Of a stretch of DNA of 64,000 nt, positions 5,718 to 29,458 are shown in pieces. A program made the position numbers and the translations under genes. The stretch is from Minisyncoccota bacterium (GTDB taxonomy: Bacteria; Patescibacteriota; Minisyncoccia; Phycocordibacterales; UBA2100): assembly GCA_965267345.1 (NCBI GenBank), contig OZ253947.1, positions 138,814-202,813 of the forward strand, in the 5' to 3' direction. Each line of letters opens with the position of its first letter. Positions within the stretch are counted from its first letter, which is position 1. Below the pieces are notes generated by a model. The model ran no database searches. It saw only the letters and a program-made list of their open reading frames with translations, and was not told the origin of the DNA.

Positions 5718-5789
5718 ATGTACGGGGAGCATTAACGTACCGCGTGTGTGTACGCGTGCCGTACGCACGTCGCACACACGCCGGCAGCG

Positions 5790-6479: not shown

Positions 6480-8135
6480 ATGGCAGCAAAAAAAGTACTG
6501 TTCAATCACAAGGTGCGTGCGGCGCTGAAGCGCGGTGTTGACACGGTTGCCGATGCGGTACGCGTTACACTCGGCCCACGCGGACGTAATGTGGCACTTG
6601 CCAAAGGATTTGGCGGACCAACCATCACCAACGACGGTGTTTCGATCGCAAAAGAAATTGAGCTTGCTGACCCCTTTGAAAATATGGGGGCAGAGGTCAT
6701 CAAGGAAGTTGCCAGCAAAACGAATGACAAAGCAGGTGACGGTACCACCACCGCAATGGTACTCACCAGTGCAATCATCACCGAAGGCTTTAAACGAACG
6801 GCCATGGGCGCGAATGCAACCGTGGTGCGCCGCGGCATTGAAGCTGCAGCACGAGACGCCGTTGCTGAATTGCAGTCACTCGCCAAGCAGGTAAAGGGGA
6901 AAGAAGAGATTCGCAATGTGGCGAAAATTTCCGCCGAATCCGATCGTCTCGGTAAGGAAATTGCTGACACCATTGAAAAAGTCGGGAAAGACGGCGTGGT
7001 GACGGTTGAGGAATCGCAATCACTCGGTATTGAATCAGAGGTAGTCGAAGGACTCGAATTCGACCGCGGCTACGTGTCACCGTATATGGTGACCAACTCA
7101 GAGCGCATGGAGGCAGAGATGAAAGATGCAGCGATTCTGGTTACCGACAAAAAGATCTCAAGCGTGCAGGAGATTCTGCCGCTGCTTGAGAAACTGGCGC
7201 AAACCGGCAAGAAAGAGCTCACCATCATTGCTGATGATGTGGAAGGCGAGGCACTCGCGACATTTGTCGTGAACAAATTGCGCGGGGCGTTTACCGTACT
7301 GGCAGTGAAAGCCCCCGGGTACGGTGACCGCAAGAAAGAAATACTTGCCGACATCGCAACGGTTGTTGGCGCCGATGTCGTGTCGGAAGATCTTGGACGA
7401 AAGCTCGAAGAAGTCGACATGGCGGTACTGGGACGCGCGAGTCGCGTTGTGGCACGAAAAGACACAACCGTGATCGTTGGCGGTAAGGGCAAAAAGGCAG
7501 ATGTGCAGTCGCGCGTTGCGCAAATGCGTGCACAGCTTGCCAACACCGACTCGAAATACGATCGTGAAAAAATTGAGGAGCGCATTGCCAAGCTCAGCGG
7601 TGGTGTGGCAGTCATTCGCGTTGGTGCAGCAACGGAGACAGAAATGAAGTACCTCAAGGACAAGATTGAGGATGCCGTGAATGCAACCAAGGCAGCCATC
7701 GAAGAGGGTATCGTACCCGGTGGTGGTACCGCGCTGGTCAAGGTTGCCGCAAAACTCAGCAAGAGTAAGCACATGAACACACACGACGAGTTTTCAATCG
7801 GCTACCGCATTGTGGTTGACGCACTGCGCGCGCCGCTGACGCAGATTGTGACCAACGCCGGTCGCGATGACGCACAGGTCATTTTGCGTGAGATCGTAAG
7901 CAAGGGCGGCAACTACGGCTTTGATGCGTCCAGTGAAGACCACGAGGCACGCATCATTGACATGCTCGCCGAAGGCATTATTGATCCGGTGAAAGTGACC
8001 CGTAGTGGTATTGAAAATGCAGCGAGCGCGGCGGCTGTACTCCTCACGACTGAAGCAGCTGTGGCTGAAGATCCTGACGAAAAGGAGGAGCCACCTGCAA
8101 TGCCAGCCGGCGGCGGCATGCCCGGCATGATGTAG
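6480..8135 (+). CDS. groEL: Chaperonin GroEL
   Basis: MAAKKVLFN..AVKAPGYGDRKK..GGG, ending in a GGM-type tail (PAGGGMPGMM). Start at the ATG 9 nt after the groES stop. Confidence 0.97.
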   Translation: MAAKKVLFNHKVRAALKRGVDTVADAVRVTLGPRGRNVALAKGFGGPTITNDGVSIAKEIELADPFENMGAEVIKEVASKTNDKAGDGTTTAMVLTSAIITEGFKRTAMGANATVVRRGIEAAARDAVAELQSLAKQVKGKEEIRNVAKISAESDRLGKEIADTIEKVGKDGVVTVEESQSLGIESEVVEGLEFDRGYVSPYMVTNSERMEAEMKDAAILVTDKKISSVQEILPLLEKLAQTGKKELTIIADDVEGEALATFVVNKLRGAFTVLAVKAPGYGDRKKEILADIATVVGADVVSEDLGRKLEEVDMAVLGRASRVVARKDTTVIVGGKGKKADVQSRVAQMRAQLANTDSKYDREKIEERIAKLSGGVAVIRVGAATETEMKYLKDKIEDAVNATKAAIEEGIVPGGGTALVKVAAKLSKSKHMNTHDEFSIGYRIVVDALRAPLTQIVTNAGRDDAQVILREIVSKGGNYGFDASSEDHEARIIDMLAEGIIDPVKVTRSGIENAASAAAVLLTTEAAVAEDPDEKEEPPAMPAGGGMPGMM

Positions 8136-8221: not shown

Positions 8222-8866
8222 ATGGCAGTACAACTGAATGTAGCACCGCGCGATCCGAAGGTGAGCGCCCAAAAACTCCGCGATGAGGGGAAACTCGTTG
8301 GTGTCTTTTACGGTCCTAAGGAGGAGGCAACACCGGTGACAATTGACATGCCTGAATTCCTCCGTGTCTGGAATGATGCCGGCGGTTCGACTATTGTTGA
8401 CTTGGTTGGCATTGGTGACGACAAAGAAGTATTGATCCACGAAGTAGATGTCCACCCCGTGACTGAAAAACCGCAGCATGTCGACTTCTACTGCATCGAG
8501 CGCGGTAAAAAGCTCACGGTCTCAGTACCGTTGGTCTTTACCGGCACGGCACCTGCAGAAAAGCAGGGTGGTATTGTGGTCAAAGCACTGCACGAACTTG
8601 AGATTGAGGTACGCCCACGCGACATCCCACACGAAATTGAGGTTGACTTGAGCACTTTGACTGAACTCGACAGCAGCATCACAGTCGGTGATCTGCGCCT
8701 TGGTGAAGGTGTTGAGCCAACTGCCGAGGCTGAGGAAACGGTTGCCTCAATTACCGAAGCGAAGGACGAACCTGAAGAGGAAGAAGAGCGCGACATCTCC
8801 GACGTCGAAATTGAAGGCGAGAAACCCGACGAAGACACAAACGAGGAATCTACAGAAGATGAGTAA
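8222..8866 (+). CDS. rplY: Ribosomal protein L25 / general stress protein Ctc with acidic C-terminal tail
   Basis: MAVQLNVAPRD..KLRDEGKLVGVFYG..VDFYCIERGKKLTV; acidic E/D-rich C-terminal 40 aa. Confidence 0.88.
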   Translation: MAVQLNVAPRDPKVSAQKLRDEGKLVGVFYGPKEEATPVTIDMPEFLRVWNDAGGSTIVDLVGIGDDKEVLIHEVDVHPVTEKPQHVDFYCIERGKKLTVSVPLVFTGTAPAEKQGGIVVKALHELEIEVRPRDIPHEIEVDLSTLTELDSSITVGDLRLGEGVEPTAEAEETVASITEAKDEPEEEEERDISDVEIEGEKPDEDTNEESTEDE

Positions 8867-8870
8867 GAAG

Positions 8871-8893
8871 ACGCCCCACGGGGCGTCTTTTGC
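8871..8893 (+). terminator. Rho-independent terminator after rplY
   Basis: Stem agacgcccc/ggggcgtct with loop acg, followed by tttt. Confidence 0.65.
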
Positions 8894-8908: not shown

Positions 8909-10255
8909 ATGATTCGTCTTCGCGACACAGTGTTCATTTTTGTCTGTGCCATTGCGCTCTGCGCCGGTGGGGTGAGTATGGCCCATGCCGAAACTGACGT
9001 TGAGCGCCGTGCGCGGCTGCAGGCGCAGCTCGACCAGCTCGACAAAGAAATTGCCGGCCTTGAGGTTGTGAAAGGAGAGGTCGCAAAAGAACGACAGACG
9101 CTCGAGCGCGATATCTCACTCCTTGATGCTGAAATTGAAAAAGCGCAGCTGGCGATTCGGCGTCGTGATCTCACCATTGAGCAGATTATCGACAACATCC
9201 ACGATCGCGAAGAGGCTATGCAGGCACTCGACGAAAAACTGCGTCGCGAAAAAGCATCACTGGCGCAGCTCTTGCGACGCACGAACGAAATTGACGACAT
9301 GAGCTTTGCCGAGATGGTACTGGGAGGAGATGATCTCTCTGATGTATTTGAAGACATTGATGCATTTGAGTCGGTGAAGTTGTCACTGACAAATTCATTC
9401 GAGCACATTGCCGAGACACGCGTCTCAATTCGTCGCCAGCGCGATGCACTTGAAAAAGAGCACATTGAAGAAGAGCAACTGCGCAAGCTCCAAGAGCTCG
9501 AGAAGCAGAAGGTGGAAGAGCGCAAGGGCGAGAAGAACACTATTCTTGAAGTAACCAAGGGCGAAGAAGAAACGTATCAGGCACTCATTAGTGAAAAACG
9601 TCAGACCGCAGCCGAAATTCGCTCAGCACTCTTTGCCTTGCGTGACACAGCTGCTATTCCGTTTGGTGACGCCTATGACTTTGCAAAAGAAGCAAGTGCA
9701 AAAACGGGTGTTCGTCCGGCCTTGATCCTCGCGATTTTGAAACAAGAAACGAACCTTGGTGAAAATGTGGGGCAGTGTCTGCTCACCAACTCACCAAACA
9801 AAGGTGATGGTAAAGGGGCAAACACGGGACGCTTTTTCTCACAGGTCATGAAGGGGTCTCGCGACGTCGATCCGTTCATCGCCATTACTGCAGAACTTGG
9901 GCTTGACCCATACAGTCAGGTGGTGTCGTGTCCGCCAGGATACGGTTATGGTGGCGCGATGGGGCCCGCACAATTTATTCCGTCGACGTGGGTACTGTAC
10001 AAAGATCGCCTCGGAAAGGTTACGGGACAGAATCCGCCGAACCCATGGGAGCCACGGACGGCGATCTTTGCCACGGCACTGCTCATGGAAGACAACGGCG
10101 CTGATGGCGGTACGTATGCGTCTGAAAAACTCGCGGCGCTTCGCTACTTTGCAGGATGGGCAAACGCACGCGATCCTGACTATGACTTCTACGGTAGGAG
10201 TGTTATGGAGCTTGCAGACGATTTCCAACGCCAGATTGACATTTTGGAAGGCTAA
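8909..10255 (+). CDS. Secreted coiled-coil protein with C-terminal lysozyme-like (lytic transglycosylase-like) domain
   Basis: Signal peptide and about 250 aa of heptad coiled coil. C-terminal ALILAILKQETNLGENVGQC (E-S/T motif of SLT-like folds). Architecture resembles PcsB/EnvC-type cell-wall hydrolase regulators. Confidence 0.5.
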   Translation: MIRLRDTVFIFVCAIALCAGGVSMAHAETDVERRARLQAQLDQLDKEIAGLEVVKGEVAKERQTLERDISLLDAEIEKAQLAIRRRDLTIEQIIDNIHDREEAMQALDEKLRREKASLAQLLRRTNEIDDMSFAEMVLGGDDLSDVFEDIDAFESVKLSLTNSFEHIAETRVSIRRQRDALEKEHIEEEQLRKLQELEKQKVEERKGEKNTILEVTKGEEETYQALISEKRQTAAEIRSALFALRDTAAIPFGDAYDFAKEASAKTGVRPALILAILKQETNLGENVGQCLLTNSPNKGDGKGANTGRFFSQVMKGSRDVDPFIAITAELGLDPYSQVVSCPPGYGYGGAMGPAQFIPSTWVLYKDRLGKVTGQNPPNPWEPRTAIFATALLMEDNGADGGTYASEKLAALRYFAGWANARDPDYDFYGRSVMELADDFQRQIDILEG

Positions 10256-11737: not shown

Positions 11738-12454
11738 ATGGCCACAGACAATAAAACAATGATTCAAGAGCTTTTTAGTGCAGGAACGCACTTTGGCTAC
11801 ACACGTACACGCCGCAATCCAAGTGTGGTTCCGTTTCTTTTCGGGCAAAAGAACCGAAACGACATTTTTGATCTCGAGCAGACCGTACAGAAGCTCGAGG
11901 AGGCACAGGGTGCCGTTGCTGACACTATTGCTGCAGGCAAGGAAGTGCTTTTTGTTGCGGGGAAAAATGAGGCGTTCCGCATCGTGCGCGCCGCTGCCGA
12001 CAAAGCAGGACAGCCGTACGTATGCGGTCGCTGGATTGGCGGTACACTCACGAACTTTAAAGAAATTAGCAAGCGCACCAAGCGTCTTGATACACTCCGT
12101 ACTGACAAACAGAAAGGAAACCTCGATAAGTACACGAAGAAAGAGCGCCTCTTGATTGATCGCGAAATTGAAGATCTCGAGGAGACATTTGGTGGTATTG
12201 CTGACATGAAGGAGCTTCCCGCAGCACTGTTTATTGTTGACCCGCGTCACGAAGACATTGCCGTACGCGAAGCACAGACACTCGGTATTCCGATTATTGC
12301 ATTGGCAAACTCTGACTGTGATCTCTCACGCATTGCATTCCCAATCCCGGGAAATGATGCTTCGACGAAGAGTATTCAGTACGTCGCTGACGCGATCGTA
12401 CAGGCTGTTGCGGACGGCAAAAAGCGTCGTCAGAGCACAGCAGCACAGAAGTAA
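11738..12454 (+). CDS. rpsB: Ribosomal protein S2
   Basis: FSAGTHFGYTRTRRNP..FGQKNRNDIFDLEQT is the S2 signature. Confidence 0.95.
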   Translation: MATDNKTMIQELFSAGTHFGYTRTRRNPSVVPFLFGQKNRNDIFDLEQTVQKLEEAQGAVADTIAAGKEVLFVAGKNEAFRIVRAAADKAGQPYVCGRWIGGTLTNFKEISKRTKRLDTLRTDKQKGNLDKYTKKERLLIDREIEDLEETFGGIADMKELPAALFIVDPRHEDIAVREAQTLGIPIIALANSDCDLSRIAFPIPGNDASTKSIQYVADAIVQAVADGKKRRQSTAAQK

Positions 12455-19232: not shown

Positions 19233-21278
19233 ATGGCAGCAAAAAAAGCAGTAAAAAAATCCTCATACGGCGCATCCGATATTACCGTCTTGGAAGGTCT
19301 TGAAGCCGTGCGTCGCCGTCCGGGCATGTACATCGGTACCACGGGCATTGACGGTCTCCACCACCTTATCTGGGAAGTGTTCGACAACTCACGTGACGAG
19401 GCGATGGGTGGACATGCAAATGATATTGAAGTGGCGCTCCTGCCGAACAATCGTGTACGCGTCGTTGATAACGGTCGCGGTATTCCCGTTGATAAACATA
19501 GCAAAACAAAAGTCTCTGCCTTGGAGACGATTATGACCACCCTGCACGCCGGCGGTAAATTTGGCGGCGAAGGCTACAAGTACTCGGGCGGATTGCACGG
19601 TGTTGGTATTTCAGTGGTGAACGCGCTCTCAAGCTGGGCGCGCGCTGAGGTGCACCGCGATGGCGGGAAGCACGTACAAGAGTACAAAAGCGGCGGCAAA
19701 CGAGTTGCAGCCGTCAAAAAGGAAGGGGCATCAGATCGTACGGGCACCATTATTACCTTTGAGGCAGACACCGAGATTTTCCCTGACGTGACATTTAACT
19801 GGAAGACGATTGTTGAGCACTTGCGTCAGCAGGCGTACTTGGTGCGCGGTATGCGCATTACCATTATTGACGCTCGTGACTACGCAGGCACCGTGAACGA
19901 CACGAGTGTCTTCTACCTGCGCGAACTCGGCCTCGACGTGCCGTCGATGACGTTCTATTTTGAGGGTGGTCTCTCGAGTCTGGTCGCATTTCAAAATCGC
20001 CACCAGAAAGAGCTGCATAAGAGCATTTTCTATGTTGAACGCGAACAGGACGATGTGCAGGTTGAGATTGCACTGCAGTACGTCGATGATATCTCAGCCC
20101 GCTTAAGTGCATTTGCAAACAATATCTACAACCTTGAAGGCGGCACACATATTACGGGGTTCAAGACTGCACTGACACGTACCCTGAATAACTACGTTAA
20201 GAAAGCGAACCTCAAAGGCGTTGAGGCGGGATTTACGGGTGACGACGTACTTGAAGGGCTCACGGCAGTGGTATCCGTAAAAATGCAGGAAATTCAGTTT
20301 GAAGGGCAAACGAAAGCAAAACTCGGTAGTGTTGAGGCGCGTGGCGCTGTTGACGCTGTGTTTGCTGCATCGTTTACCGATTTCCTCGAAGAAAATCCAA
20401 ATGATGCCAAGGCAATCATCGGCAAAGCGGTATTGGCAATGAAAGCGCGTAAAGCCGCAAAAGCCGCAAAAGATTCGGTGTTGCGCAAAGGGGCACTTGA
20501 AGGGCTCACGCTGCCGGGTAAACTGGCCGACTGTCAGGTCCGCAGTGCGGAAGAAGGAGAGCTGTTTATTGTCGAGGGTGATTCGGCAGGTGGTTCATCA
20601 AAGCAGGGACGCGATCGTCGCACGCAGGCTATTTTGCCGCTCCGCGGTAAGATTTTGAACGTTGAGCGTGCGCGCCTCGACAAAATGCTCGCGAACAACG
20701 AGATTAAAGCACTGGTGGTCGCACTCGGTACTGCCATTGGTGATACATTCGATGTTTCGAAACTCCGCTACCACAAGATCATTATTGCCACTGACGCCGA
20801 TGTTGACGGTGCACACATCCGTACATTGTTGTTGACGCTGTTTTATCGCTACTTCAAGCCAATCGTGGAGGGCGGATACCTCTACATTGCACAGCCGCCG
20901 CTGTATAAAATCAAGAAAGGGCGCGATGTGCAGTACGCATACACTGAGGAGGAAAAGGTGGTACTGGCCGGTGAGATTCCCGAAGACGCTGAAGAAGCGA
21001 CGGATGATGACGAGGGCGATGAGGCTGCCGAAGAAACCACCAAAGTTGATGCGAAGGGGAATAAGATCAGCGTACAGCGATACAAAGGTCTTGGTGAGAT
21101 GAACCCTGATGAACTCTGGGAGACCACTATGGATCCCGAGCGCCGCCTGCTCAAGCAGGTAACCATTGAAGACGCCCGCGAAGCAGACAAGGTCTTTGAT
21201 ACGCTGATGGGGACGGATGTTGCTTCGCGCAAGTCATTCATTCAGTCGCACGCCAAAGAAGCAACGCTGGACATTTAA
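19233..21278 (+). CDS. gyrB: DNA gyrase subunit B (type IIA topoisomerase ATPase/TOPRIM subunit)
   Basis: GLHHLIWEVFDNSRDEAM, GGKFGG and EGDSAGGS (TOPRIM). 681 aa. gyrB versus parE cannot be resolved from sequence alone. Confidence 0.88.
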   Translation: MAAKKAVKKSSYGASDITVLEGLEAVRRRPGMYIGTTGIDGLHHLIWEVFDNSRDEAMGGHANDIEVALLPNNRVRVVDNGRGIPVDKHSKTKVSALETIMTTLHAGGKFGGEGYKYSGGLHGVGISVVNALSSWARAEVHRDGGKHVQEYKSGGKRVAAVKKEGASDRTGTIITFEADTEIFPDVTFNWKTIVEHLRQQAYLVRGMRITIIDARDYAGTVNDTSVFYLRELGLDVPSMTFYFEGGLSSLVAFQNRHQKELHKSIFYVEREQDDVQVEIALQYVDDISARLSAFANNIYNLEGGTHITGFKTALTRTLNNYVKKANLKGVEAGFTGDDVLEGLTAVVSVKMQEIQFEGQTKAKLGSVEARGAVDAVFAASFTDFLEENPNDAKAIIGKAVLAMKARKAAKAAKDSVLRKGALEGLTLPGKLADCQVRSAEEGELFIVEGDSAGGSSKQGRDRRTQAILPLRGKILNVERARLDKMLANNEIKALVVALGTAIGDTFDVSKLRYHKIIIATDADVDGAHIRTLLLTLFYRYFKPIVEGGYLYIAQPPLYKIKKGRDVQYAYTEEEKVVLAGEIPEDAEEATDDDEGDEAAEETTKVDAKGNKISVQRYKGLGEMNPDELWETTMDPERRLLKQVTIEDAREADKVFDTLMGTDVASRKSFIQSHAKEATLDI

Positions 21279-21282
21279 CGTA

Positions 21283-21330
21283 CACCCATACGAAAAAACG
21301 CCGCAATTGCGGCGTTTTTTCGTATGGGTG
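21283..21330. terminator. Bidirectional terminator: 22 bp perfect inverted repeat between the convergent gyrB and CARDB-protein genes
   Basis: Arms cacccatacgaaaaaacgccgc and gcggcgttttttcgtatgggtg around loop aatt. A-runs and T-runs are built into both arms. Confidence 0.7.
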
Positions 21331-21337
21331 TCGGTAA

Positions 21338-22393
21338 TTAGTAGGCGTGCCCGCCAACGGTAAACGCGCCGGTTACCGTGTTGTTGTATTCACTTTGCTC
21401 GCGAATGAAGTTGCGTGGATCGGCGACAACCGAGAAGTACTGTGTACCAGCACGAATTTGATCAAAGGCGATACGGATTTCAACACGAGCACCGGGGAGT
21501 AGCGACGTCTGTGCTTCTGAGAAGAGTGGGTAGCCCCCTTGAATCGGGAGTTGCGCGTTGAAGTACCATGGGCCGGTTGCCTTCGTCCCGCGGTTGGTTA
21601 CTGCAAAGACAAACGCACCGCGCTGATTTGGCTGGACGGTTGTTGCGGGACGGTAGATACCGTAGCCGTCGACAAACCCAACAGAAACGAGTGATACTGC
21701 CAAGTCGGGCGTGCCGTTTGGATCAGAGTAACCCGTGTACTGCGCAGTGTACGATTGCTGTGTGCTATTCGTGGTGTTTTGTGTCGCGTTCTGGCGTGAT
21801 GGAGTGATCGTGAGACCGTCAGGTGTGCTGGTGGTACCTGTGGTGGCATCGTCAGTGCTGCTGTCCGTAGTGGTGGTCGGTGCGGTGTTATCGGTGGCAA
21901 CGCTACCGGCTGCTGCTGCCTGTACGGTAATGGTGTGGGTGTCACGAATGCTCTCACCTGCGTCGTCGGTGAGTGTAATGGCAAACGGCACCGTAAGCGT
22001 TTCGCTGCCGGCGTCAACGAGCACTGGGGTGACCTGCAACTCAGTCGCATCTTCGGCAAGTGTATGCGCGAGATTACACGGCACCGGCTCGCCGGCAATT
22101 TCAAAGTAGAAGCCGTCCTGACATGCGTATGAAAATGACAACACACCTTCTGAGGTAGTGCGCTCCCACGTCACCGCAAGCGGTTCACCTGAGGTGGCAG
22201 TATCCGCTGCAGTAGCCACAACAATCGTTTCTGCCGCTGCGTTACCGCCTTGCGGCGTATCGGCATCACTAAAGAGTCGTGGAATGTATGAAATGACCTG
22301 AATGGCGCTCCAGACACCGATAATGAGGAGGATAATAAAACCGCCGATGGCGATAATGTTTTTAAACGATACGTCAGTTTTTCCGTTTGTCAT
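21338..22393 (-). CDS. Membrane-anchored surface protein with Thr/Ser-rich linker and C-terminal CARDB-like domain
   Basis: N-terminal TM helix, about 60 aa T/S/D-rich low-complexity linker, and C-terminal DLAVSLVS..FVFAVTNRGTKATGPWYFNA..PGARVEIRIAFD (CARDB-like beta-sandwich). ATG at 22393 preferred over TTG at 22405. Confidence 0.5.
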   Translation of the reverse strand: MTNGKTDVSFKNIIAIGGFIILLIIGVWSAIQVISYIPRLFSDADTPQGGNAAAETIVVATAADTATSGEPLAVTWERTTSEGVLSFSYACQDGFYFEIAGEPVPCNLAHTLAEDATELQVTPVLVDAGSETLTVPFAITLTDDAGESIRDTHTITVQAAAAGSVATDNTAPTTTTDSSTDDATTGTTSTPDGLTITPSRQNATQNTTNSTQQSYTAQYTGYSDPNGTPDLAVSLVSVGFVDGYGIYRPATTVQPNQRGAFVFAVTNRGTKATGPWYFNAQLPIQGGYPLFSEAQTSLLPGARVEIRIAFDQIRAGTQYFSVVADPRNFIREQSEYNNTVTGAFTVGGHAY

Positions 22394-22500
22394 ATGGGGT
22401 AACAAAGTAAGTAAAGTCGATCAATGTGCCACTAGTATGGCACAGTACCGTGGGCGACACACCACCGGTACGCTCCGTAAACGGTACCATAGCATACAGC

Positions 22501-22529
22501 TTGACACATTGCAATATAGTACGTATAGT
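22501..22529 (+). promoter_or_regulatory. Consensus sigma70-type promoter upstream of the sortase gene
   Basis: TTGACA, a 17 nt spacer, then TATAGT. The -10 ends about 9 nt before ATG 22539, so a leaderless or near-leaderless transcript is likely. Confidence 0.6.
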
Positions 22530-22538
22530 ATTAATTCT

Positions 22539-23237
22539 ATGACGCAACAGAAGCGTATTTCAATTGCGCACATTGCTGAATCAGTATTCCAGACCGAAGT
22601 GCTTGTCGGGCTCTTTCTTGCGTGGTTCATCCTCGTGGGGACTGGGGCAAGTATTGCCATTGTCATGACCAAGTACACCGAGCATGTGTACGCTGAGCAA
22701 CTTGCACAGCTGCCTGAAGACGAGCAACTCCCTGAGGCAACAAATGTTGCTGAAAGTGCGCAGCGGGACACCGGCGCAGCTGAGAGTGCTGTACCCATGG
22801 CATTTCCAGAACGCCTCGTTATCGACACACTCGACATCAGCTTGCCGGTGAGCAACCCGACAACACGCGACATTGCGGCGCTCGACGAAGAGCTCAAAAA
22901 GGCTGCCGTGCGTTATCCTGACTCGGGTATTCTTGGCGAAGACAATGCAAATACCCTTATTTTCGGCCATAGTAGCCGTCTACCATTGGTGCGCAACCAG
23001 CTCTACAAAGCTTTTAACGATATTGAAACCCTAAATGTGGGTGTACGTATTGAGGTTGTTGCAACAAATGGCTCTGTATACGTCTACCACGTATCTCGTG
23101 TGTACCGCGCCAGCGCTGAAGATGACAGCATTGCCATCACTACAGACGGCCACATGCTCACATTGCTCACGTGTGACTCATTTGGACAGCGCACAGATCG
23201 TTGGGTTGTCGAAGCTCGGTTTGTCGGCATTGAATAG
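22539..23237 (+). CDS. Sortase-family transpeptidase
   Basis: N-terminal TM anchor, TLIFGHSS (catalytic His) and LTLLTCD (TLxTC catalytic Cys motif), followed by a conserved Arg region. Confidence 0.7.
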   Translation: MTQQKRISIAHIAESVFQTEVLVGLFLAWFILVGTGASIAIVMTKYTEHVYAEQLAQLPEDEQLPEATNVAESAQRDTGAAESAVPMAFPERLVIDTLDISLPVSNPTTRDIAALDEELKKAAVRYPDSGILGEDNANTLIFGHSSRLPLVRNQLYKAFNDIETLNVGVRIEVVATNGSVYVYHVSRVYRASAEDDSIAITTDGHMLTLLTCDSFGQRTDRWVVEARFVGIE

Positions 23238-23302
23238 GGAATTGACCGCGGAACCACGCCGTGCTTTGCTACAGCTGGACAGTTCTGCTGGAGGAGCAAA
23301 TT

Positions 23303-23476
23303 ATGCGGACACTTGTCGTCGTGTGTGCGGCTCTGGCCCTCGCCGGTTGCACACTATCTGGATTCGGTGGAAGTTCACTGCGAACGGAGGCAGTGCAAAA
23401 GGTATTTCCGTCGGCGCATGAGTGCATGCACCGTGGGGAACCACATCTGTGCGTCAGTGACAATCAGCGAATTTAG
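23303..23476 (+). CDS. Small putative lipoprotein with CxH..HxC motif
   Basis: MRTLVVVCAALALAGC lipobox. Mature peptide about 40 aa with HECMHRGEPHLC. Strong SD (GGAGGAG) 8 nt upstream. Terminator hairpin follows. Confidence 0.45.
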   Translation: MRTLVVVCAALALAGCTLSGFGGSSLRTEAVQKVFPSAHECMHRGEPHLCVSDNQRI

Positions 23477-23595
23477 CGAAAAACGGCTCAACACAGCAAA
23501 AACAGGGCGCTTCGGCGCCCTGTTATGCTATTGACATATTGTATAAAAATGGTATTCTTCCGTCCAGATCAACGTGAACGAAAGGAGGAAATCCA

Positions 23596-23850
23596 ATGTT
23601 CACAGTGGTTCGTACGGCCTGCGTACTTGGTGCGCTTGTGGTCGCGGGTTGCGCGGCGCAGGGACGCCATGTGAGTGGGTCGCCAGTGCCGCCGTCGCCG
23701 AGCGACCTCTTACGGCATTGCGGGGACGTGGAGGTTGTCGTTGACAACCGAGTACCACGACGTCCGCGTGGTCCGTGGTTGCGTCTCGTGCAGGGAACAC
23801 GAGTGTATCCTGACTTCTGCCGCGTGGAAAAGAGCTACGTGTGGCGATGA
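23596..23850 (+). CDS. Small putative lipoprotein, Pro/Arg-rich with 2 mature Cys
   Basis: LGALVVAGC lipobox. AAAGGAGG SD 7 nt upstream. Own terminator. Confidence 0.5.
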   Translation: MFTVVRTACVLGALVVAGCAAQGRHVSGSPVPPSPSDLLRHCGDVEVVVDNRVPRRPRGPWLRLVQGTRVYPDFCRVEKSYVWR

Positions 23851-24144
23851 GGAAAGCACACAAGCAAGACAAAAAGCGGGGCGCCCACACGGTGCCCCGC
23901 TTAGTTTTTGGTACAGGATAGTACTTGACACAATAAGTTATATATGCCACTATATCGCCACGACGCGTTCTCTCTTTGATGCCAAACATACGCTGTTTTT
24001 ACGGCGTATGTTTGGCTTCGTAGAGGCCGCAGAAGCTCATTGTGTTCATTGAAACGCTCCTCATTGTGGGGAGCTGGTGGTCGGCGCCATGGCACACATC
24101 ACCAGCTCCCCGTGATGGAGGGAGTACAAAAGGGAGATTCAAAG

Positions 24145-24522
24145 ATGTCTGAAAAGACCAAAGGTGTTTTCTGGGGTTTCATCGTATGTGCAGCACTCGT
24201 TTTCGTGCTGGGGGGCTTCTGGTTTTCCTTCACGAACGACAAGGGTGTGCGCGATGGGGTGCGCCAGGAGGTATCGCTTGAAGGCGATCGGCATTCGGCA
24301 CCCACTTCCTCAGATCAGAACTCTGTTCGTTCGGAATCGGACGATCCGGTATCCAACGCGGATGTTCTTGCGGCATGGGAGAGGGCGATCAACGATACGC
24401 CTCCTCCCGCAGGAGCTGATGGCTGGAAACGGATCAAGCCGAGGGCAACGGGCGAGAAGGGCTGCACGCCTGGGGAAACGCGGGTCAACCCGAATACCGG
24501 CAGACTTCAGGGCTGCTTGTAG
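24145..24522 (+). CDS. Small membrane-anchored secreted protein with C-terminal Cys-x18-Cys loop
   Basis: N-terminal signal anchor (GVFWGFIVCAALVFVLGGFWF). GCTPGETRVNPNTGRLQGCL at the C-terminus. GGGAG SD. Strong terminator (13 bp stem plus T9) at about 24527-24583. Confidence 0.45.
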   Translation: MSEKTKGVFWGFIVCAALVFVLGGFWFSFTNDKGVRDGVRQEVSLEGDRHSAPTSSDQNSVRSESDDPVSNADVLAAWERAINDTPPPAGADGWKRIKPRATGEKGCTPGETRVNPNTGRLQGCL

Positions 24523-24526
24523 ACAT

Positions 24527-24583
24527 CGTAGCGGAATGTGTTTGATACACATTCCGCTACCCCCCTTTTTTTAAAATTTGAGC
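24527..24583 (+). terminator. Strong rho-independent terminator after the small Cys-loop protein gene
   Basis: 13 bp stem (tagcggaatgtgt/acacattccgcta), followed by ccccccttttttttt. Confidence 0.7.
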
Positions 24584-24678
24584 TTAAAGAGATTGTGGAG
24601 AGCTCCAGCAGCGTAATCTTTGTTATTTTGTTGCAGGTCTTCACAAGAGACCTCATGTCAACAACGAAAGGAGGTGAC

Positions 24679-25191
24679 ATGAAGACGTTCTTTGTAGTAG
24701 CAGTCTTGGCGGTTGCATGTACGTTGTTTTTCTACGATGACGCACATGCAGGATATCGCTGCGACGGCGGCACCCGCTGCCTCGAACATCTGAAGGATGA
24801 TGGTCCCCGCGCCTACAGCGGGCCGCTTACGTGCATTGATTTCCGGCAACGGGGCACGGAGCGTGAGGTCTACCTTCGGTTTTTCGATCGCGACGGGCGT
24901 GTGTTGTTCGCCAGCGGTGACCCGCAAGGTGCAACCACGAATCTGGTGAGGGGAACGAGCTTGGAAGGAGTTGGTTTCGAAACCTACTCTGAGGGGCGCA
25001 TCGTGTGGGATCCGAAGAAACGGAAATACCCGCGCATTTGTACCGGACCGTGGCGTTGGAAAATGGCCTATTCCTTTGAACTCTGCAACGATGTGCAGAC
25101 GTACAAAGGTCGCCGCCTTCCTGGCAGGAGCCTATATCAACGTCTGGTGTCCGGTGACTTCCCGCAGCCAGTACTTCTGTGGAAGCACTGA
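24679..25191 (+). CDS. Secreted cysteine-rich protein (6 Cys in mature chain)
   Basis: Signal peptide MKTFFVVAVLAVA..AHA. Cys in YRCDGGTRC, LTCIDF, RICTGP and ELCNDV. AAAGGAGG SD 7 nt upstream. Terminator hairpin downstream. Confidence 0.5.
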   Translation: MKTFFVVAVLAVACTLFFYDDAHAGYRCDGGTRCLEHLKDDGPRAYSGPLTCIDFRQRGTEREVYLRFFDRDGRVLFASGDPQGATTNLVRGTSLEGVGFETYSEGRIVWDPKKRKYPRICTGPWRWKMAYSFELCNDVQTYKGRRLPGRSLYQRLVSGDFPQPVLLWKH

Positions 25192-25249
25192 AGAATCGTC
25201 AAGGCCCAAGTTCCCGACAGAGCATTCTTCAAAACGAATAGCTCTGTCG

Positions 25250-25279
25250 GGCACTTGACTACTTTTAATATATATTGTA
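25250..25279 (+). promoter_or_regulatory. Sigma70-type promoter upstream of the tandem-repeat surface protein
   Basis: TTGACT, a 17 nt spacer, then TATATT. Confidence 0.5.
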
Positions 25280-25349
25280 TATTCTCATTGAGTCATTTAC
25301 TCTTGCTGCGGCAGTGGTAGGTGAACAAAAGCAACATAATGTAATTATC

Positions 25350-26600
25350 ATGGAAAACGTGATTTCAAAAATAACTTTCATATCATTGGCCGTACTATTC
25401 GGTGTGGTGTTTGGGCTTGGAAGTCAATTGGTTTCTCCGCATCTCGCGCAGGCGTATAATACCGGCGAATGGTACGACATCGCGGAACCTGCATACGGCT
25501 ACGATGATGGCTGGGGGTATACTAACGAAGGATGCTGCGATACTAACGAATGGTACGACATCGCGGAACCAACTTTCGACACAAGCGAATGGTACGACAT
25601 CGCGGAGCCCGCATACGAATATAATACCGGCGAATGGTACGACATCGCGGAACCAACTTTCGACACAAGCGAATGGTACGATATCGCAGAGCCAATACAC
25701 GATGTGTATTCATACGACTATGGCTACGATGTATACGACTACGACGTATATGACACCTACTCATACGACTACTACACCGCACCGTCACGTCACTACGTGT
25801 CACCGACGGTACATTACGGTGTGACATCAAGTTACGCAGCAGCGCCACGATACGAGGCGCGCAGCAACACACAGATCAGTAACACCAACACAACGGTAGA
25901 CAACAGCGTGGTGCAGATCGATAACAGTGTTGTCGACAACAGTGTCGTTGATAACAGCATCAACAACTCATTTAACTCAGGTGGCTACATCGGTGTTGCA
26001 AATCCGCAGCCGATCGTTGTACAGCCGTACTACTACCCAACGTACTACCCTGAGACACTGACGTGTTCACTGACACTGACGCAGAACAGCTACGGAAACG
26101 CCGTGCTGCACTGGACGACACAGGGCGCAACCCGCGCAACCATCAACAATGGTGTTGGTAGTGTGTCTGTCGGTTCAGGTTCACGTGCTGTCGGGCCGGC
26201 ATACACGCCATACACCATGACAGTGTGGGGTACACGCGGTAACACCACGACGTGTGCCGCATCAGCAAACTACACGCCGCACCGACCAAACGTCACGGTT
26301 GATATTGCACACGTGCCATACACTGGTGTTGATCCACTTCCATACACACTCGGGCTTATTGCCACCGCTCTTGCCGCCGGTGCTGCACTCTTTGTCTTCC
26401 GCCGTCGTCTTACCCCTGTCTTTGGTGCATTTGCTCCCGCATTTGCCGGATTTACGCAGCATCAGGACGAAGTGGCTGCTGACACGTATCAGTTTGACGG
26501 TGACGAGGACGACGCAGATAGCGACGATCGCGAGGCAGTTGATACGCTTGTTGTTGAAAAGGGTGAGGGAGGACCACAATTCTCGTTCATTCGTCGCTAA
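25350..26600 (+). CDS. Tandem-repeat surface protein (EWYDIAEP repeats, Tyr/Asp-rich) with sorting-signal-like C-terminal region
   Basis: Signal peptide, then 5 or more EWYDIAEP(A/T)(Y/F) repeats, YDY low complexity and DNSVV repeats. C-terminus has VPYTG..PLPYTLG, a hydrophobic helix, RRR, and a 60 aa acidic tail. Confidence 0.55.
   Translation: MENVISKITFISLAVLFGVVFGLGSQLVSPHLAQAYNTGEWYDIAEPAYGYDDGWGYTNEGCCDTNEWYDIAEPTFDTSEWYDIAEPAYEYNTGEWYDIAEPTFDTSEWYDIAEPIHDVYSYDYGYDVYDYDVYDTYSYDYYTAPSRHYVSPTVHYGVTSSYAAAPRYEARSNTQISNTNTTVDNSVVQIDNSVVDNSVVDNSINNSFNSGGYIGVANPQPIVVQPYYYPTYYPETLTCSLTLTQNSYGNAVLHWTTQGATRATINNGVGSVSVGSGSRAVGPAYTPYTMTVWGTRGNTTTCAASANYTPHRPNVTVDIAHVPYTGVDPLPYTLGLIATALAAGAALFVFRRRLTPVFGAFAPAFAGFTQHQDEVAADTYQFDGDEDDADSDDREAVDTLVVEKGEGGPQFSFIRR
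25455..25700 (+). repeat. Imperfect tandem DNA repeats (units about 39-45 bp nested in an 83 bp higher-order unit) encoding EWYDIAEP repeats
   Basis: gaatggtacgacatcgcggaacc recurs at about 25467, 25548, 25587, 25632 and 25671. tataataccggcgaatggtacgacatcgcggaacc is duplicated at about 25454 and 25618. Confidence 0.85.
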
Positions 26601-26688
26601 CGCAGCGACCGCTGTACAATTGCGTGCCGCTATTGCCTAATTTCTGCACGCGTTGACAACCCGTCTGCGAAGCGCATTATTGAGAGAT

Positions 26689-27150
26689 ATGACGTACACA
26701 AACACATTGCGTTGGAGTATCGCCGCACTGTTCATCGGTGGCGCTGCTCTGTTCGCGTTTCCGTACAGCGCCCACGCACTCTCATACATTGATTGGAATT
26801 ACCCGTATACACGGTCATCGAACCAGTACGTCGTGACGTCGGCAACGTACGGCAATCAGTACAACAACTGGAACGCCAATCCGAATTGGAACTGGACGCA
26901 CCGGAACTGGAACCGCAACACAGCAAACGGCTACACCGTGACATTTCCGCAATCAACGCACCATAACTACACACCGGCAACGTATACGTACTACGATTAC
27001 TACCAGCCGCAATGGTACTACACGACGCCCGTAACGTACCGCTATGATGATTGGTACTATCCAACAAATACGTGCTGGAACTGCACATCATGGCCGTACA
27101 ACAATGGGTGGGGTATTAACGTCGGTGGCTACTACTCAAATTCGTGGTAG
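26689..27150 (+). CDS. Secreted Trp/Tyr/Asn-rich low-complexity protein
   Basis: Signal peptide (..AALFAFPYSAHA). Mature chain is dominated by W, Y, N and T (NWNANPNWNWTHRNWNRN, YYDYYQPQWYY). Confidence 0.45.
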   Translation: MTYTNTLRWSIAALFIGGAALFAFPYSAHALSYIDWNYPYTRSSNQYVVTSATYGNQYNNWNANPNWNWTHRNWNRNTANGYTVTFPQSTHHNYTPATYTYYDYYQPQWYYTTPVTYRYDDWYYPTNTCWNCTSWPYNNGWGINVGGYYSNSW

Positions 27151-27218
27151 GTGCGCCTTACGCGGACCCCTTCCGTAGGACTTGACACTATAGCATAAAT
27201 ATGCTACAGTATACCCCT

Positions 27219-27659
27219 ATGAACGTACAGAGTACGGGTATAGCGCGATTTACCGCAACGGCATTTGTTGTCGTCATTGCAGTGGTAGGTTTCGCGATAC
27301 CAAAAAGTGCAGACGCCGCTTATCAATATGGCATCGGGGCGTCGATTTGTGGGAATGATCCTTTCATGTATTGTGGCAACCTTGGATACAAGGAGCGCAG
27401 CAATGGTCAGTGGCAAGTAACCGCCGGCGGAACAGTTGGGTTCGGAAACACATACAGCACGTACCGCCCAGCATCACGTCCGACGTACTACACGACCAGT
27501 CATCGCAGTGCACCGAGTGTGTACACGGTCGGGAGCGCATACTCACGCCAGAAGCGTCCCGTATACGTTGGTTCGCGTACGCAGTCAACGTACGTTGTCA
27601 CATCAAACAATGCTCGTGCACCGCGCACGTCATACCCAAACTGGTTGGTCATGTACTAA
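27219..27659 (+). CDS. Secreted Tyr/Thr/Ser-rich protein
   Basis: Signal peptide (..FAIPKSADA). Mature chain rich in Y, T, S and R with short repeats (STYRPASRPTYYT..). Confidence 0.45.
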   Translation: MNVQSTGIARFTATAFVVVIAVVGFAIPKSADAAYQYGIGASICGNDPFMYCGNLGYKERSNGQWQVTAGGTVGFGNTYSTYRPASRPTYYTTSHRSAPSVYTVGSAYSRQKRPVYVGSRTQSTYVVTSNNARAPRTSYPNWLVMY

Positions 27660-27671
27660 CCCGCATACTAC

Positions 27672-27702
27672 AAAACGCTCGGCTACACGCCGAGCGTTTT
27701 GT
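27672..27702. terminator. Bidirectional terminator between the Y/T/S-rich protein gene and thrS
   Basis: Stem aaaacgctcggc/gccgagcgtttt with loop tacac. Confidence 0.65.
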
Positions 27703-27703
27703 G

Positions 27704-29458
27704 TTAGATCGCGGTTTCTTCTGCGAGTCGCTTGAGAAATTCCTCCAGTGTCAGTGCGCCTACCTTTTCATCGCGATGCTCAACCATAAGCGTCTGCGCC
27801 GATACTTCTGTGTCGCCTACGACGAGAATGTAGGGGACTTTCGCTACCTTTGCGTTACGTATGCGCTTACCGAGTGTCTCTGCTGATGTGTCACATGAAG
27901 CGCGATATCCTGCACCGGTGAGTTGTGTTGTAACATCATGTGCGTACGGAGCATGCGTGTCGGCAACGGGGATCACCCGTACCTGTTCCGGTGCCAACCA
28001 CGTCGGGAATGCACCCGCAAAGTGCTCAATGATGACCGACAAGAAGCGTTCAAGCGAGCCGGCGACGGCACGGTGGATCATAACGGGACGCTCTTTCTCA
28101 CCTGATTCGTTTACGTACTCGAGTTCAAAGCGTTCAGGCATGACAAAGTCGAGTTGAATGGTGGCGAGCTGCCACTCACGACCGATGGCGTCCTTAAACA
28201 TAAAGTCGACTTTGGGACCGTAGAACGCCGCTTCGCCTTCAACGCGGGTGTAGGGGAGCGACTCGCTCTGCACGACCTCTTCGAGAATCGTTTCAGCTTC
28301 ACGCCATGCGTCGTCACTGCCAAGGTATTTCTCAGGCTCTTCCGGATCGCGTACTGAAACTGAGACCCAGTAGTTACCTTCATCAAACATGCCCAGCGAG
28401 GTGTAGAACGTGCGGATAACCGACGCAATATTGCTGATCTCCTCGCGGATCTGATCGGGGCGGGCAAAGACGTGCCCGTCGTCTTGGGTGATACTGCGCA
28501 CGCGTGACAGCCCCAACAACTCACCTGCCTGTTCGTCACGGTAGACCATCGTGGTTTCCGAGTAGCGAATGGGAAGGTCTTTGTAGCTACGCTGTTTGCC
28601 TGCGTAGATCTGCGTGTGGTGCGGGCAGTTCATCGGCTTCATCACGAATTCCGCCGCGCTCTGGCCGGTGACCTTGAACAGCTCGTCGCCAAATTTCTCC
28701 CAGTGTCCCGATGTTTCGTAGAGTTCTTTTTTGGTGATGTGCGGAATGGTGACGGGCTCAAACCCGAAGCGCTGCTGAATTGTCTGAATACGCTGTGTAA
28801 TGAGGTCGCGCAGGAGCGTGCCGCGCGGTGTCCAGAGCGGCAGTCCGGGTCCCACGAGATCAGAAAAGGTAAAGAGGTCCATTTCCTTACCGATCTTACG
28901 GTGGTCTCGTTTACGCGCTTCTTCAAGCAAGGTGAGGTGCTCTTGCAGTGCGTCAGGCGTATCAAACGCGAGTCCGTAGATGCGCGTGAGCATCTGGTTT
29001 TTCTCGTCACCGCGCCAGTAGGCGCCGGCAATACTCGTGAGCATAAATGCCTTGGGGTCAATGGTCTCGGCAGGATTTTCAGCATGTCCGCCGCGGCACA
29101 AATCGGTGAATTCACCGCAGGTGTAGAGCGTTATCTCAGCGTCACCTTTTTCCAGCTCATCAATCAACTCCTGCTTATACGGATTCTCGGCAAAACGCTC
29201 GCGGGCGTCATCAGGGGTGACGACCGCTCGTTCCCACGCAGTCCAGCGTGAGAGATTTTTACGCATGGCCGTCTGGAGTGCTTTGAGGTCACCTTCACTC
29301 GGCGTGTCACCACCGGAAAAGTCGAAGTCGTAGTAGAAGCCCGTACTCGTCGCCGGTCCGATGGTTGGTTTCGCGTGCGGGTACGCGTTGCACACTGCCT
29401 GCGCGAGGAGGTGCGCCAGTGTGTGGCGCATGTGCATCAGTTGTTCATCGGGTTCCAT
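27704..29458 (-). CDS. thrS: Threonyl-tRNA synthetase (lacks N-terminal TGS domain)
   Basis: Class II motifs and the HMRHTLAHLLAQA zinc-site region. 584 aa. Confidence 0.92.
   Translation of the reverse strand: MEPDEQLMHMRHTLAHLLAQAVCNAYPHAKPTIGPATSTGFYYDFDFSGGDTPSEGDLKALQTAMRKNLSRWTAWERAVVTPDDARERFAENPYKQELIDELEKGDAEITLYTCGEFTDLCRGGHAENPAETIDPKAFMLTSIAGAYWRGDEKNQMLTRIYGLAFDTPDALQEHLTLLEEARKRDHRKIGKEMDLFTFSDLVGPGLPLWTPRGTLLRDLITQRIQTIQQRFGFEPVTIPHITKKELYETSGHWEKFGDELFKVTGQSAAEFVMKPMNCPHHTQIYAGKQRSYKDLPIRYSETTMVYRDEQAGELLGLSRVRSITQDDGHVFARPDQIREEISNIASVIRTFYTSLGMFDEGNYWVSVSVRDPEEPEKYLGSDDAWREAETILEEVVQSESLPYTRVEGEAAFYGPKVDFMFKDAIGREWQLATIQLDFVMPERFELEYVNESGEKERPVMIHRAVAGSLERFLSVIIEHFAGAFPTWLAPEQVRVIPVADTHAPYAHDVTTQLTGAGYRASCDTSAETLGKRIRNAKVAKVPYILVVGDTEVSAQTLMVEHRDEKVGALTLEEFLKRLAEETAI

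Follow-up and report, generated by a model that had tools for sequence, protein, structure and literature searches.

A sortase and a predicted [VI]PYTG-bearing substrate conserved in the gyrB-thrS interval of Paceibacteria

What holds together a run of nine genes for exported proteins in the middle of a housekeeping region? The question is raised by a 6.3-kb locus in a 64-kb stretch of contig OZ253947.1 from a Minisyncoccota bacterium (the whole stretch is referred to here as the window), in which nine consecutive genes, g1 to g9, fill positions 21338-27659, the gap between gyrB (19233-21278, plus strand) and thrS (27704-29458, minus strand). The neighbors are all housekeeping genes: those for RNase J, GroEL, L25, RF, S2, EF-Ts, pheS/T and gyrB on one side, and thrS, dnaE and those for RNase HII, NusB, RNase III, SMC, RNase R and TrmD on the other. 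An earlier note, made from the letters of the window alone, had described a block of only secreted or anchored proteins between gyrB and thrS, and we find the same gene content at the same coordinates. A hydrophobic N-terminal segment (Kyte-Doolittle 15-mer maximum of at least 2.16) is present in nine of nine locus genes, versus 8 of the 48 other open reading frames (ORFs) in the window; signal peptides and anchors called in this way from hydropathy are heuristic. Pfam and NCBIfam recognize a CARDB domain in g1 and a sortase in g2, and have no family for the other seven proteins, in agreement with the note. Its assignment to a reduced-genome lineage is also borne out: the best gyrB matches are metagenome-assembled genomes (MAGs) of Patescibacteria/Paceibacteria, with up to 82% identity among GTDB representatives and 85% among metagenome contigs, and related MAGs are labeled Kaiser-, Adler-, Taylor- and Nomurabacteria or Paceibacterota. 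Patescibacteria, for which the name candidate phyla radiation (CPR) is also in use, are ultrasmall and mostly host-dependent, and how they build their envelopes and contact their hosts is largely unknown. Sortases are common among them, and to our knowledge the substrates and signals of these enzymes had not previously been defined. On the best reading of our observations, a dedicated sortase-substrate module forms the center of the locus and is conserved across a large group of Paceibacteria that resemble Kaiser-, Adler-, Taylor- and Nomurabacteria.

The predicted substrate is g7 (25350-26600, plus strand, 416 residues counted from the ATG at 25350), which the earlier note had described as a repeat protein, overlooking both the sorting-type signal inside it and the conserved tail that follows. 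By hydropathy the protein starts with a signal peptide (MENVISKITFISLAVLFGVVFGLGSQLVSPHLAQA|Y; a helix at residues 2-24 in an AlphaFold2 model), which leads into five EWYDIAEP repeats, encoded by a tandem repeat of period 39 and 3.7 copies (25547-25695, plus strand), then a low-complexity part rich in Y, N and T, an immunoglobulin (Ig)-like domain, the pentapeptide VPYTG, a transmembrane (TM) helix, the basic cluster RRR and an acidic tail. The pentapeptide (26313-26327, plus strand), with the predicted sortase cleavage site between T and G, stands in the context IAHVPYTGVD within the segment DIAHVPYTGVDPL. It is followed by 19 hydrophobic residues, YTLGLIATALAAGAALFVF (TM helix, 26343-26399), by RRR (26400-26408) and by 63 more residues of acidic, conserved and predicted cytoplasmic tail; helix, cluster and tail together occupy 26343-26597 and end in DTLVVEKGEGGPQFSFIRR. 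No other protein in the window combines PxTG with a TM helix. The AlphaFold2 model of g7 was built with 30 sequences and, like that of g1, rests on a shallow alignment; it shows an Ig-like sandwich at residues 238-303 (predicted local distance difference test, pLDDT, 84-94) and a TM helix at 330-365, the remainder being of low confidence, including about 190 residues of repeats and Y/N/T-rich sequence, an extended linker that bears VPYTG, and a disordered acidic tail. Fold searches with the model return only generic Ig or PKD matches.

No existing model covers the [VI]PYTG signal in Pfam or NCBIfam. The NCBIfam matches to g7, which fall on the signal itself, are sub-threshold and to models of two other non-canonical sortase signals, GVDTG_CTERM at 18.6 bits (cutoff 29) and Microco_LAVTG at 15.5 bits (cutoff 27), and neither g7 nor the other members of its family match a curated anchor model (TIGR01167 LPXTG_anchor or its variants). 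In the literature that we searched, there is nothing on a VPYTG or IPYTG sorting motif, on a conserved synteny of g1, sortase and substrate, or on the tail. The suggestion of an undescribed sortase-dependent surface system is therefore upheld as regards novelty, with no Pfam or NCBIfam model and no paper in that literature on the signal, and has to be narrowed as regards extent, as g7 alone among the nine proteins has a sortase signal.

The evidence for a functional pair is comparative. We compared the locus with 80 gyrB loci from species representatives, taken with 10-kb flanks (1.39 Mb in total; these are loci rather than whole genomes, and many from MAGs are incomplete), and with further, closer relatives (L081 and L083-L085; 82-85% identity in gyrB and 54-58% in pheT). 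At gyrB identities of 61-85% a recurrent order is found: pheT-gyrB, a g1-like gene on the minus strand, a sortase gene on the plus strand, a variable interval, a PYTG protein gene on the plus strand, and then thrS and dnaE on the minus strand. Sortase is present in 45 of the 80 loci, and a g1 homolog stands beside gyrB in about 47-50. PYTG with a hydrophobic stretch occurs in 30, each time in a gene that shares the strand of the sortase and lies downstream of it; PYTG plus a TM helix was never found in loci that lack a sortase, nor elsewhere in the 1.39 Mb, and the lone extra PYTG hit is an antisense ORF inside the PYTG gene of L028. Of the 15 sortase loci without such a gene, 11 break off less than 3 kb downstream. 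Family alignments with 18, 22 and 30 members, in which column identity averages 21-43%, have no invariant columns other than P, Y, T and G.

Conservation of the locus is layered, with a class-level core of g1, g2 and g7, a family-level set of g6, g8 and g9, and species-level infill of g3 to g5. The three core genes keep their order and orientation across dozens of species while the genes between them turn over. The note's label of an accessory locus thus fails for the block as a whole, with g1, the sortase and the [VI]PYTG protein syntenic in 45-50 of the 80 relatives at gyrB identities down to about 61%; variability between relatives, which the note had proposed to examine, is found for g3-g6, g8 and g9 and not for the widely conserved g1, g2 and g7. 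Synteny of the entire block under housekeeping annotations, which the note had named as evidence to the contrary, is not seen: three genes only are syntenic, and they are annotated as sortase, CARDB and hypothetical protein. In eight relatives (L006, L027, L029, L034, L043, L058, L060 and L063), gyrB lies within about 1 kb or less of thrS-dnaE without g1, sortase or PYTG gene, and the module thus shows a clean presence/absence polymorphism at one fixed place on the chromosome.

The family extends well beyond these loci. A profile of motif, TM helix and tail matches 842 protein clusters at E <= 1e-3, 244 at 1e-10 and 89 at 1e-30 among 1.84 billion representatives. An alignment query is needed to find them, as a single-sequence word search with the g7 C-terminus gives no match; among the family matches listed, there is no Pfam domain and all are 'hypothetical'. 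The box shared by the wider family reads PYV[ST]LS[QA]-[VI]PYTG-[LF][DE][LA]GP-x-GT-x-LYWxFLxLWCLxAAYLIxVK[KR]. One database protein, P0001, ends as a canonical signal does (VPYTG-TM-KLRRRS), the only member to do so; no sortase lies within its 6-kb contig, so P0001 backs the signal reading and not the adjacency. In every member the mature chain opens with short tandem repeats that are specific to the lineage and rich in D, Y, W, G and S, with units such as EWYDIAEP (window 25455-25700), GGWTTDWYQDYSAP, SYDYFVPDYGG, YPNYSDSSYS and YTDYSFEDTYYPS, as read in the window, P0008, P0014, P0027, L065 and L083-L085. That the unit changes while its composition is kept suggests a shared binding property, for cations, a glycan or a partner surface. 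In the ectodomains of long family members, Pfam and NCBIfam recognize DUF11 repeats, PKD domains and an RrgB-type isopeptide domain.

The enzyme of the pair would be g2 (22539-23237, plus strand, 232 residues), which has an N-terminal membrane anchor (VLVGLFLAWFILVGTGASIAIVM, Kyte-Doolittle value 2.49) and matches Pfam Sortase PF04203 with 65.3 bits (cutoff 26.6, E = 5.8e-18) over residues 172-307 of its longest ORF. Its nearest solved structures are 4d70 (SORTASE FAMILY PROTEIN) and 2ln7, which we take to be class D sortases; GHS, TLLTC and DRWVV of g2 are in register with the GH, TC and DR positions of 4d70, and conservation of the catalytic His, Cys and Arg reaches 90% or more across 46 members of the sortase family. 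With this Pfam match, these residues and the anchor, g2 is predicted to be an active sortase. Class assignment is another matter. All NCBIfam class models score below cutoff (bits/cutoff: SrtD 31.9/140, C 31.9/160, D 29.1/165, E 27.5/160, F 21.0/166, GN 18.6/158, B 12.6/154), and the generic sortase model TIGR01076 reaches 26.4 bits with a cutoff of 39.35. Given that every curated class model falls this far short, g2 is an unclassified sortase.

We consider it probable, judging from the sequences and their conservation, that g2 cleaves g7 between T and G, attaches the repeat/Ig ectodomain to the envelope, and leaves the TM helix and tail in the membrane. The signal peptide would export g7 and the helix after VPYTG would hold it in the membrane, where the neighboring g2, a predicted Cys transpeptidase with a His/Cys/Arg triad, would cut it. 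The extracellular part, consisting of aromatic/acidic repeats, low-complexity spacer and Ig-like domain, would then be joined to an envelope amine, most likely of a peptidoglycan precursor, while the fragment G-VDPLP-TM-RRR-tail would stay behind. The g1 product is a predicted membrane-anchored stalk with two Ig-like domains that may play a part in this module. A tripartite sorting signal has been defined as a motif, a TM helix and basic residues in a protein with an N-terminal signal peptide, and a sorting enzyme adjoining a single target as the signature of a 'dedicated system' (PMC3237569). All parts are found in g7, namely an xPxTG pentapeptide, a TM helix with a basic cluster and a signal peptide, and the joint inheritance of the enzyme with a single protein of this kind matches both definitions. 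The system would work like a sortase system with an enzyme of the sortase superfamily, yet it stands outside the defined classes and has a non-canonical signal layout.

Several points weigh against this interpretation. The signal is not at the extreme C-terminus: 63 residues follow RRR in g7 and 30-370 follow the basic cluster in relatives, and we know of no classical sortase substrate with such a long extension. Sequence conservation also extends to the TM helix and the tail, and the PYTG box could accordingly have a different purpose. Next to the sortase of L046 and L051 is a gene that encodes a TM helix and a long tail with no signal peptide, ectodomain or PYTG, which means that association with the sortase does not strictly require a substrate relationship. 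The g2 protein passes no curated class A-F threshold, its specificity is a prediction only, and the g1 alignments hold no conserved Lys and no pilin motif that would mark an acceptor. Since loci alone were scanned, further PYTG proteins or sortases may exist elsewhere in these genomes, as the case of P0001 illustrates. The support is comparative and computational throughout.

One alternative is that g7 is an uncleaved type I membrane protein. PYTG-LDLGP would then be a structural or interaction motif next to the membrane, the functional core would consist of the TM helix and tail, and the sortase would be a partner or have other proteins as its targets. This would account for a sequence conservation of helix and tail far beyond plain hydrophobicity, for tails of up to about 370 residues with conserved blocks, and for the occurrence of helix and tail without ectodomain or PYTG beside the sortase in L046 and L051 and as separate ORFs in L053, L018, L021 and L030. 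Against it, the invariant residues include precisely the P, T and G found in the consensus pentapeptide of sortases, P0001 carries the signal in its canonical terminal form, and the motif is co-located exclusively with a sortase whose catalytic triad is intact. We therefore regard an uncleaved g7 as unlikely.

The tail nonetheless calls for an explanation of its own, and at least three types are seen in the family. The type of the window ends in ...D[TS][LM]x[LV]xxxxxGxxP[KQR][LFI]x[FI]x[RQ][RN] and recurs in L081, L002, L004, L009, L010 and L083-L085; a common short type ends in IDPFIxSQIxR; and a long type of about 300 residues contains conserved blocks that include EDGW[IV][VL][LI] and LDxVY[KR]. 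For the long type there is no Pfam or NCBIfam relative, and its profile finds nothing below E = 0.5 among PDB sequences. Homology between short and long tails was considered and set aside, as hhalign aligns the motif and TM region (97% probability) and not the tail ends. The C-termini IDPFIxSQIxR and P[QK][FL]SF[IV][RQ]R (window 26541-26597; P0002-P0033) loosely resemble the conserved FtsZ C-terminal peptide, which we take to be D-I-P-x-F-L-R. Genes for helix and tail alone directly follow the sortase in L046 (9280-10266) and L051 (14542-15513), the tail is a separate ORF in L053 (17331-18167), and extra genes for 84-89 residues of TM helix and short tail are found in L018 (17582-17842), L021 (16857-17126) and L030 (17141-17395). 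Helix and tail thus behave as an autonomous module, which the classical sortase model leaves unexplained, and the survival of the tail without an ectodomain suggests that it may have a function of its own. A tentative extension, to which we give only limited credence, is that [VI]PYTG links two autonomous parts, a variable ectodomain at the surface and a conserved cytoplasmic module anchored in the membrane, at a joint that the sortase can cleave. Sortase processing would then convert or release a module that faces the cytoplasm and so couple surface display to localization, signaling or quality control; we know of no sortase-gated transmembrane device of this kind.

A second alternative is a sortase-assembled pilus, in which g2 would be a class C polymerase joining g7 subunits head-to-tail, and g1 would form the base or be an accessory subunit. 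Pilus islands (class C sortase with LPXTG pilins) resemble the locus in that the sortase is clustered with its substrate or substrates and in that some long family members have isopeptide- or DUF11-type domains; L033, for instance, combines an RrgB_K2N isopeptide fimbrial domain (37.5 bits, cutoff 30) with DUF11 repeats. Two PYTG genes stand in tandem in L004 and L048, and class C is among the best weak NCBIfam matches of g2, at 31.9 bits. That score lies far under the cutoff of 160, however, and a locus has a single sortase and, as a rule, a single substrate, the window having only one PxTG protein. A pilin-motif Lys is conserved in neither g7 nor g1, g1 has no sorting signal, and g7 of the window is mostly low-complexity with one small Ig-like domain, so that we judge a pilus very unlikely. 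The idea that there is no functional unit at all, but an accessory locus as in the note without any coupling, in which a housekeeping sortase came by accident into a recombination-tolerant gyrB-thrS gap collecting unrelated secreted-protein genes, would fit the lineage-to-lineage variation of the infill, the eight relatives with gyrB beside thrS and no module, and the promoter and/or hairpin that each gene has to itself, but it can hardly be reconciled with g1, sortase and PYTG protein retaining order and orientation across dozens of species amid this turnover, nor with the absence of PYTG plus TM from the rest of the 80 loci.

How the predicted g2-g7 pair relates to known systems can be stated in some detail. 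It shares with classical Gram-positive LPXTG systems a membrane-anchored Cys transpeptidase with a His/Cys/Arg triad and a substrate with signal peptide, xPxTG pentapeptide, TM helix and basic cluster. Signal variants of class A, D and E sortases are LPXTG, LPNTA and LAXTG. Here, by contrast, position 3 of the motif, [VI]PYTG, is always Tyr and a conserved [LF][DE][LA]GP box comes next, the sequence of the helix is itself conserved, the basic cluster is followed by a further 30-370 residues of conserved tail, and the enzyme scores 12-32 bits where the class cutoffs are 140-166. Closer in organization are dedicated systems of one enzyme and one target, such as the Gram-negative class GN sortase TIGR03784 with its LPXTG target and rhombosortase with GlyGly-CTERM, in which the pair is likewise adjacent and co-inherited (PMC3237569). 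The present system differs from the class GN systems in belonging to Patescibacteria and in the class GN score of g2 (18.6 bits, cutoff 158), and from dedicated systems in having g1 as a third conserved partner and unrelated secreted-protein genes between enzyme and target. A post-cleavage TM fragment with a role of its own has a parallel, by analogy only, in Streptococcus gordonii, where, according to a summary in PMC11326707, the C-peptide that sortase substrates leave in the membrane is sensed by a two-component system; the fragment retained here would differ in carrying a conserved cytoplasmic domain, and the locus has no gene for a kinase or regulator. In CPR bacteria, a sortase family, fam000526, is enriched and more than half of the genomes encode a sortase (Meheust et al. 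2019, PMC6744442). The g2 family presumably belongs to that set, although the passages on sortases in PMC6744442 describe neither a cognate signal nor the g1-sortase-PYTG synteny nor the tail.

The locus thus pairs an enzyme with a predicted cognate signal, a sortase with [VI]PYTG-[LF][DE][LA]GP-TM-tail, across a large clade, and the signal allows a curated model by which hundreds of 'hypothetical' surface proteins could be annotated. It also singles out g7 as one predicted covalently displayed protein, whose variable aromatic/acidic repeat ectodomain makes it an obvious candidate for surface or host interaction; the role in host attachment or surface remodeling that the earlier note had envisaged for the locus would be pure conjecture. 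A tail that survives without its ectodomain raises the question of what stays in the membrane after sortase processing.

The third component of the core is g1 (21338-22393, minus strand, 351 residues, product identical to database protein P0035), which we count as such because it is always encoded divergently beside the sortase; g1 is coupled to the sortase no less tightly than the substrate is. It comprises a TM helix, an Ig-like beta-sandwich with two invariant Cys, a disordered linker rich in Thr and, at the C-terminus, a CARDB beta-sandwich (Pfam CARDB PF07705, 31.9 bits, cutoff 22.7, E = 1.6e-7). In an AlphaFold2 model made from 12 homologs (pLDDT 70.6), these correspond to residues 8-35, 57-158, 163-220 and 231-346. 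The last superposes on the CARDB structure 3idu with a TM-score of 0.74 and a root-mean-square deviation of 2.8, and outside it the fold search matches only generic tandem Ig-like folds. Two further ideas about g1 were rejected. Exceptional conservation of its TM helix is seen in close homologs and is gone in a 50-member family, where it equals the value of the CARDB domain (0.45), and an argument for a membrane complex was dropped accordingly. A domain shared by g1 and g7 was suggested by single-linkage clustering, which grouped the two, and direct BLASTP shows no similarity between them.

The six remaining genes encode small envelope or secreted proteins and form a rapidly evolving infill, which lies between the sortase and substrate genes and beyond the latter. 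Predicted lipoproteins are encoded by g3 (23303-23476, plus strand, 57 residues, with a Shine-Dalgarno (SD) sequence and ATG, lipobox LAGC and two further Cys) and g4 (23596-23850, plus strand, 84 residues, lipobox VAGC and two further Cys). The g5 product (24145-24522, plus strand, 125 residues) is membrane-anchored with a C-terminal Cys-loop, GC..GETxVNPxTGRLQGC, and g6 (24679-25191, plus strand, 170 residues) encodes a secreted Cys protein with the signal peptide ...AHA|G. Downstream of g7 lie g8 (26689-27150, plus strand, 153 residues), secreted and rich in W, Y and N (12 W, 24 Y and 21 N), and g9 (27219-27659, plus strand, 146 residues), secreted and Tyr-rich, with a conserved CG..[FY]..CG disulfide loop. 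The infill proteins are probably disulfide-bonded. The description of W/Y-rich secreted proteins suits g8, in which W and Y make up 23.5%, and not g9, which is rich in Y only. As none of g3, g4, g5, g6, g8 and g9 has a PxTG sorting motif, the small Cys proteins and the W/Y-rich proteins are not sortase-dependent.

Among the 80 species-level loci, none of these six genes has a detectable homolog. For g3 and g4 there is no sequence match in any related locus, and L081 has two unannotated small lipoprotein ORFs at their position. An ortholog of g5 is present only in L081 (38% identity). Positional orthologs of g6 in L081, L083 and L085 have four invariant Cys and 23-28% identity, and the same three loci have positional counterparts of g8 with a similar W/Y/N-rich composition. 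The N-terminal 80 residues of g9 are 67% identical in L081, with weak matches in L083 and L085 and a counterpart in L084 seen only through an alignment; its two Cys are invariant in five relatives. At the family level, g6, g8 and g9 thus appear to travel with g7. In more distant lineages the interval from the sortase to the PYTG gene holds 0-5 kb of other genes, for secreted or Cys-containing proteins or lipoproteins. A membrane protein of 363-372 residues, with a weak Band_7 match in L083, adjoins the sortase on the opposite strand in L083 (6930-8048) and L084 (6965-8056); the window is without such a gene.

The locus is enriched in promoter-like sites, with 12 versus 6.0 +/- 2.4 in shuffles, and such sites precede g2, g4, g7, g8 and g9. 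The consensus promoters that the earlier note had recognized before the sortase and the repeat protein are indeed present, at 22501-22529 (TTGACA-N17-TATAGT, plus strand, 11 of 12 matches, 9 nucleotides before the ATG) and at 25255-25283 (TTGACT-17-TATATT, plus strand). A further promoter precedes g9 (TTGACA-17-TACAGT, 27182-27210, plus strand), and a promoter-like site lies 8 nucleotides before the ATG of g8 (26653-26680, plus strand). L081, in which the sortase is 63-67% identical, keeps the geometry TTGACA-N17-TATAGT-N9-ATG exactly, and the g7 and g9 promoters are conserved there in position.

The -10 hexamers before g2, g8 and g9 end 6-9 nucleotides ahead of the ATG, with no SD sequence (22501-22541, 26653-26691 and 27182-27221), and from this geometry the three mRNAs are predicted to be leaderless or nearly so. 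L081 retains the arrangement for g2 (6949-6989) and g9 (11960-12001). Unlike these genes, g3 to g6 have clear GGAGG-type SD sequences. A minus-strand promoter-like site for g1 (TTGAAA-18-TAGAAT, 22534-22563) interleaves with the plus-strand sortase promoter at 22501-22529; the predicted start sites of g1 and the sortase would be about 9 nucleotides apart, so both promoters might compete for RNA polymerase.

A hairpin terminator of its own for nearly every gene, as had been described, is found for part of the locus. Strong hairpins follow six of the nine genes (after g1/gyrB, g3, g4, g5, g6 and g9/thrS), g2, g7 and g8 have only weak ones, and a consensus terminator scan of the locus gives 10 sites versus 6.9 +/- 2.7 in shuffles, which is no excess. 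A bidirectional hairpin common to gyrB (plus strand) and g1 (minus strand) has a perfect stem of about 23 base pairs (21281-21330, -44.4 kcal/mol for the 80-nucleotide segment), and another with a 15-base-pair stem (27669-27703) lies between g9 (plus strand) and thrS (minus strand). Between these, a hairpin with a GC-rich stem of 10 base pairs follows g3 (23501-23524), intrinsic-terminator-like hairpins with T-runs follow g4 (23874-23902, plus strand) and g5 (24528-24560, plus strand, 14 base pairs), and a hairpin of -30 kcal/mol follows g6 and abuts the g7 promoter (25207-25257, plus strand).

The 5' leader of g5 contains a long hairpin of about 30 base pairs (24056-24125, plus strand) that ends about 12 nucleotides before the g5 SD sequence. 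Its minimum free energy is -45.9 kcal/mol (z = -4.5; none of 200 shuffles is equally stable). The L081 leader (8814-8892) folds alike, with another loop and some changed pairs (-46.6 kcal/mol, z = -4.6), so the fold is kept though the g5 proteins of window and L081 are only 38% identical. It belongs to no Rfam family, and an Rfam scan of the whole locus found nothing. The hairpin could be a stabilizing 5' stem-loop or a translational regulator.

Exported proteins encoded elsewhere in the window include one with a signal peptide and an SLT_2 transglycosylase match (8909-10255) and an SBP_bac_5 solute-binding protein (3951-5777), both without a PxTG signal.

Start codons of the nine locus genes were set by SD sequences, promoter geometry and L081 orthologs, and for two genes they differ from those of the longest ORFs, which overstate the sortase by 22302-22538 and g7 by 25275-25349. 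The 311-residue sortase ORF overlaps g1 by about 90 nucleotides, and the match of its first 27 codons to L081 arises only because this stretch runs antisense to the conserved N-terminus of g1. In the database g7 is entered as P0020, with 441 residues and a start at a TTG at 25275; the ATG at 25350 gives a normal signal peptide and sits downstream of the promoter at 25255-25283.

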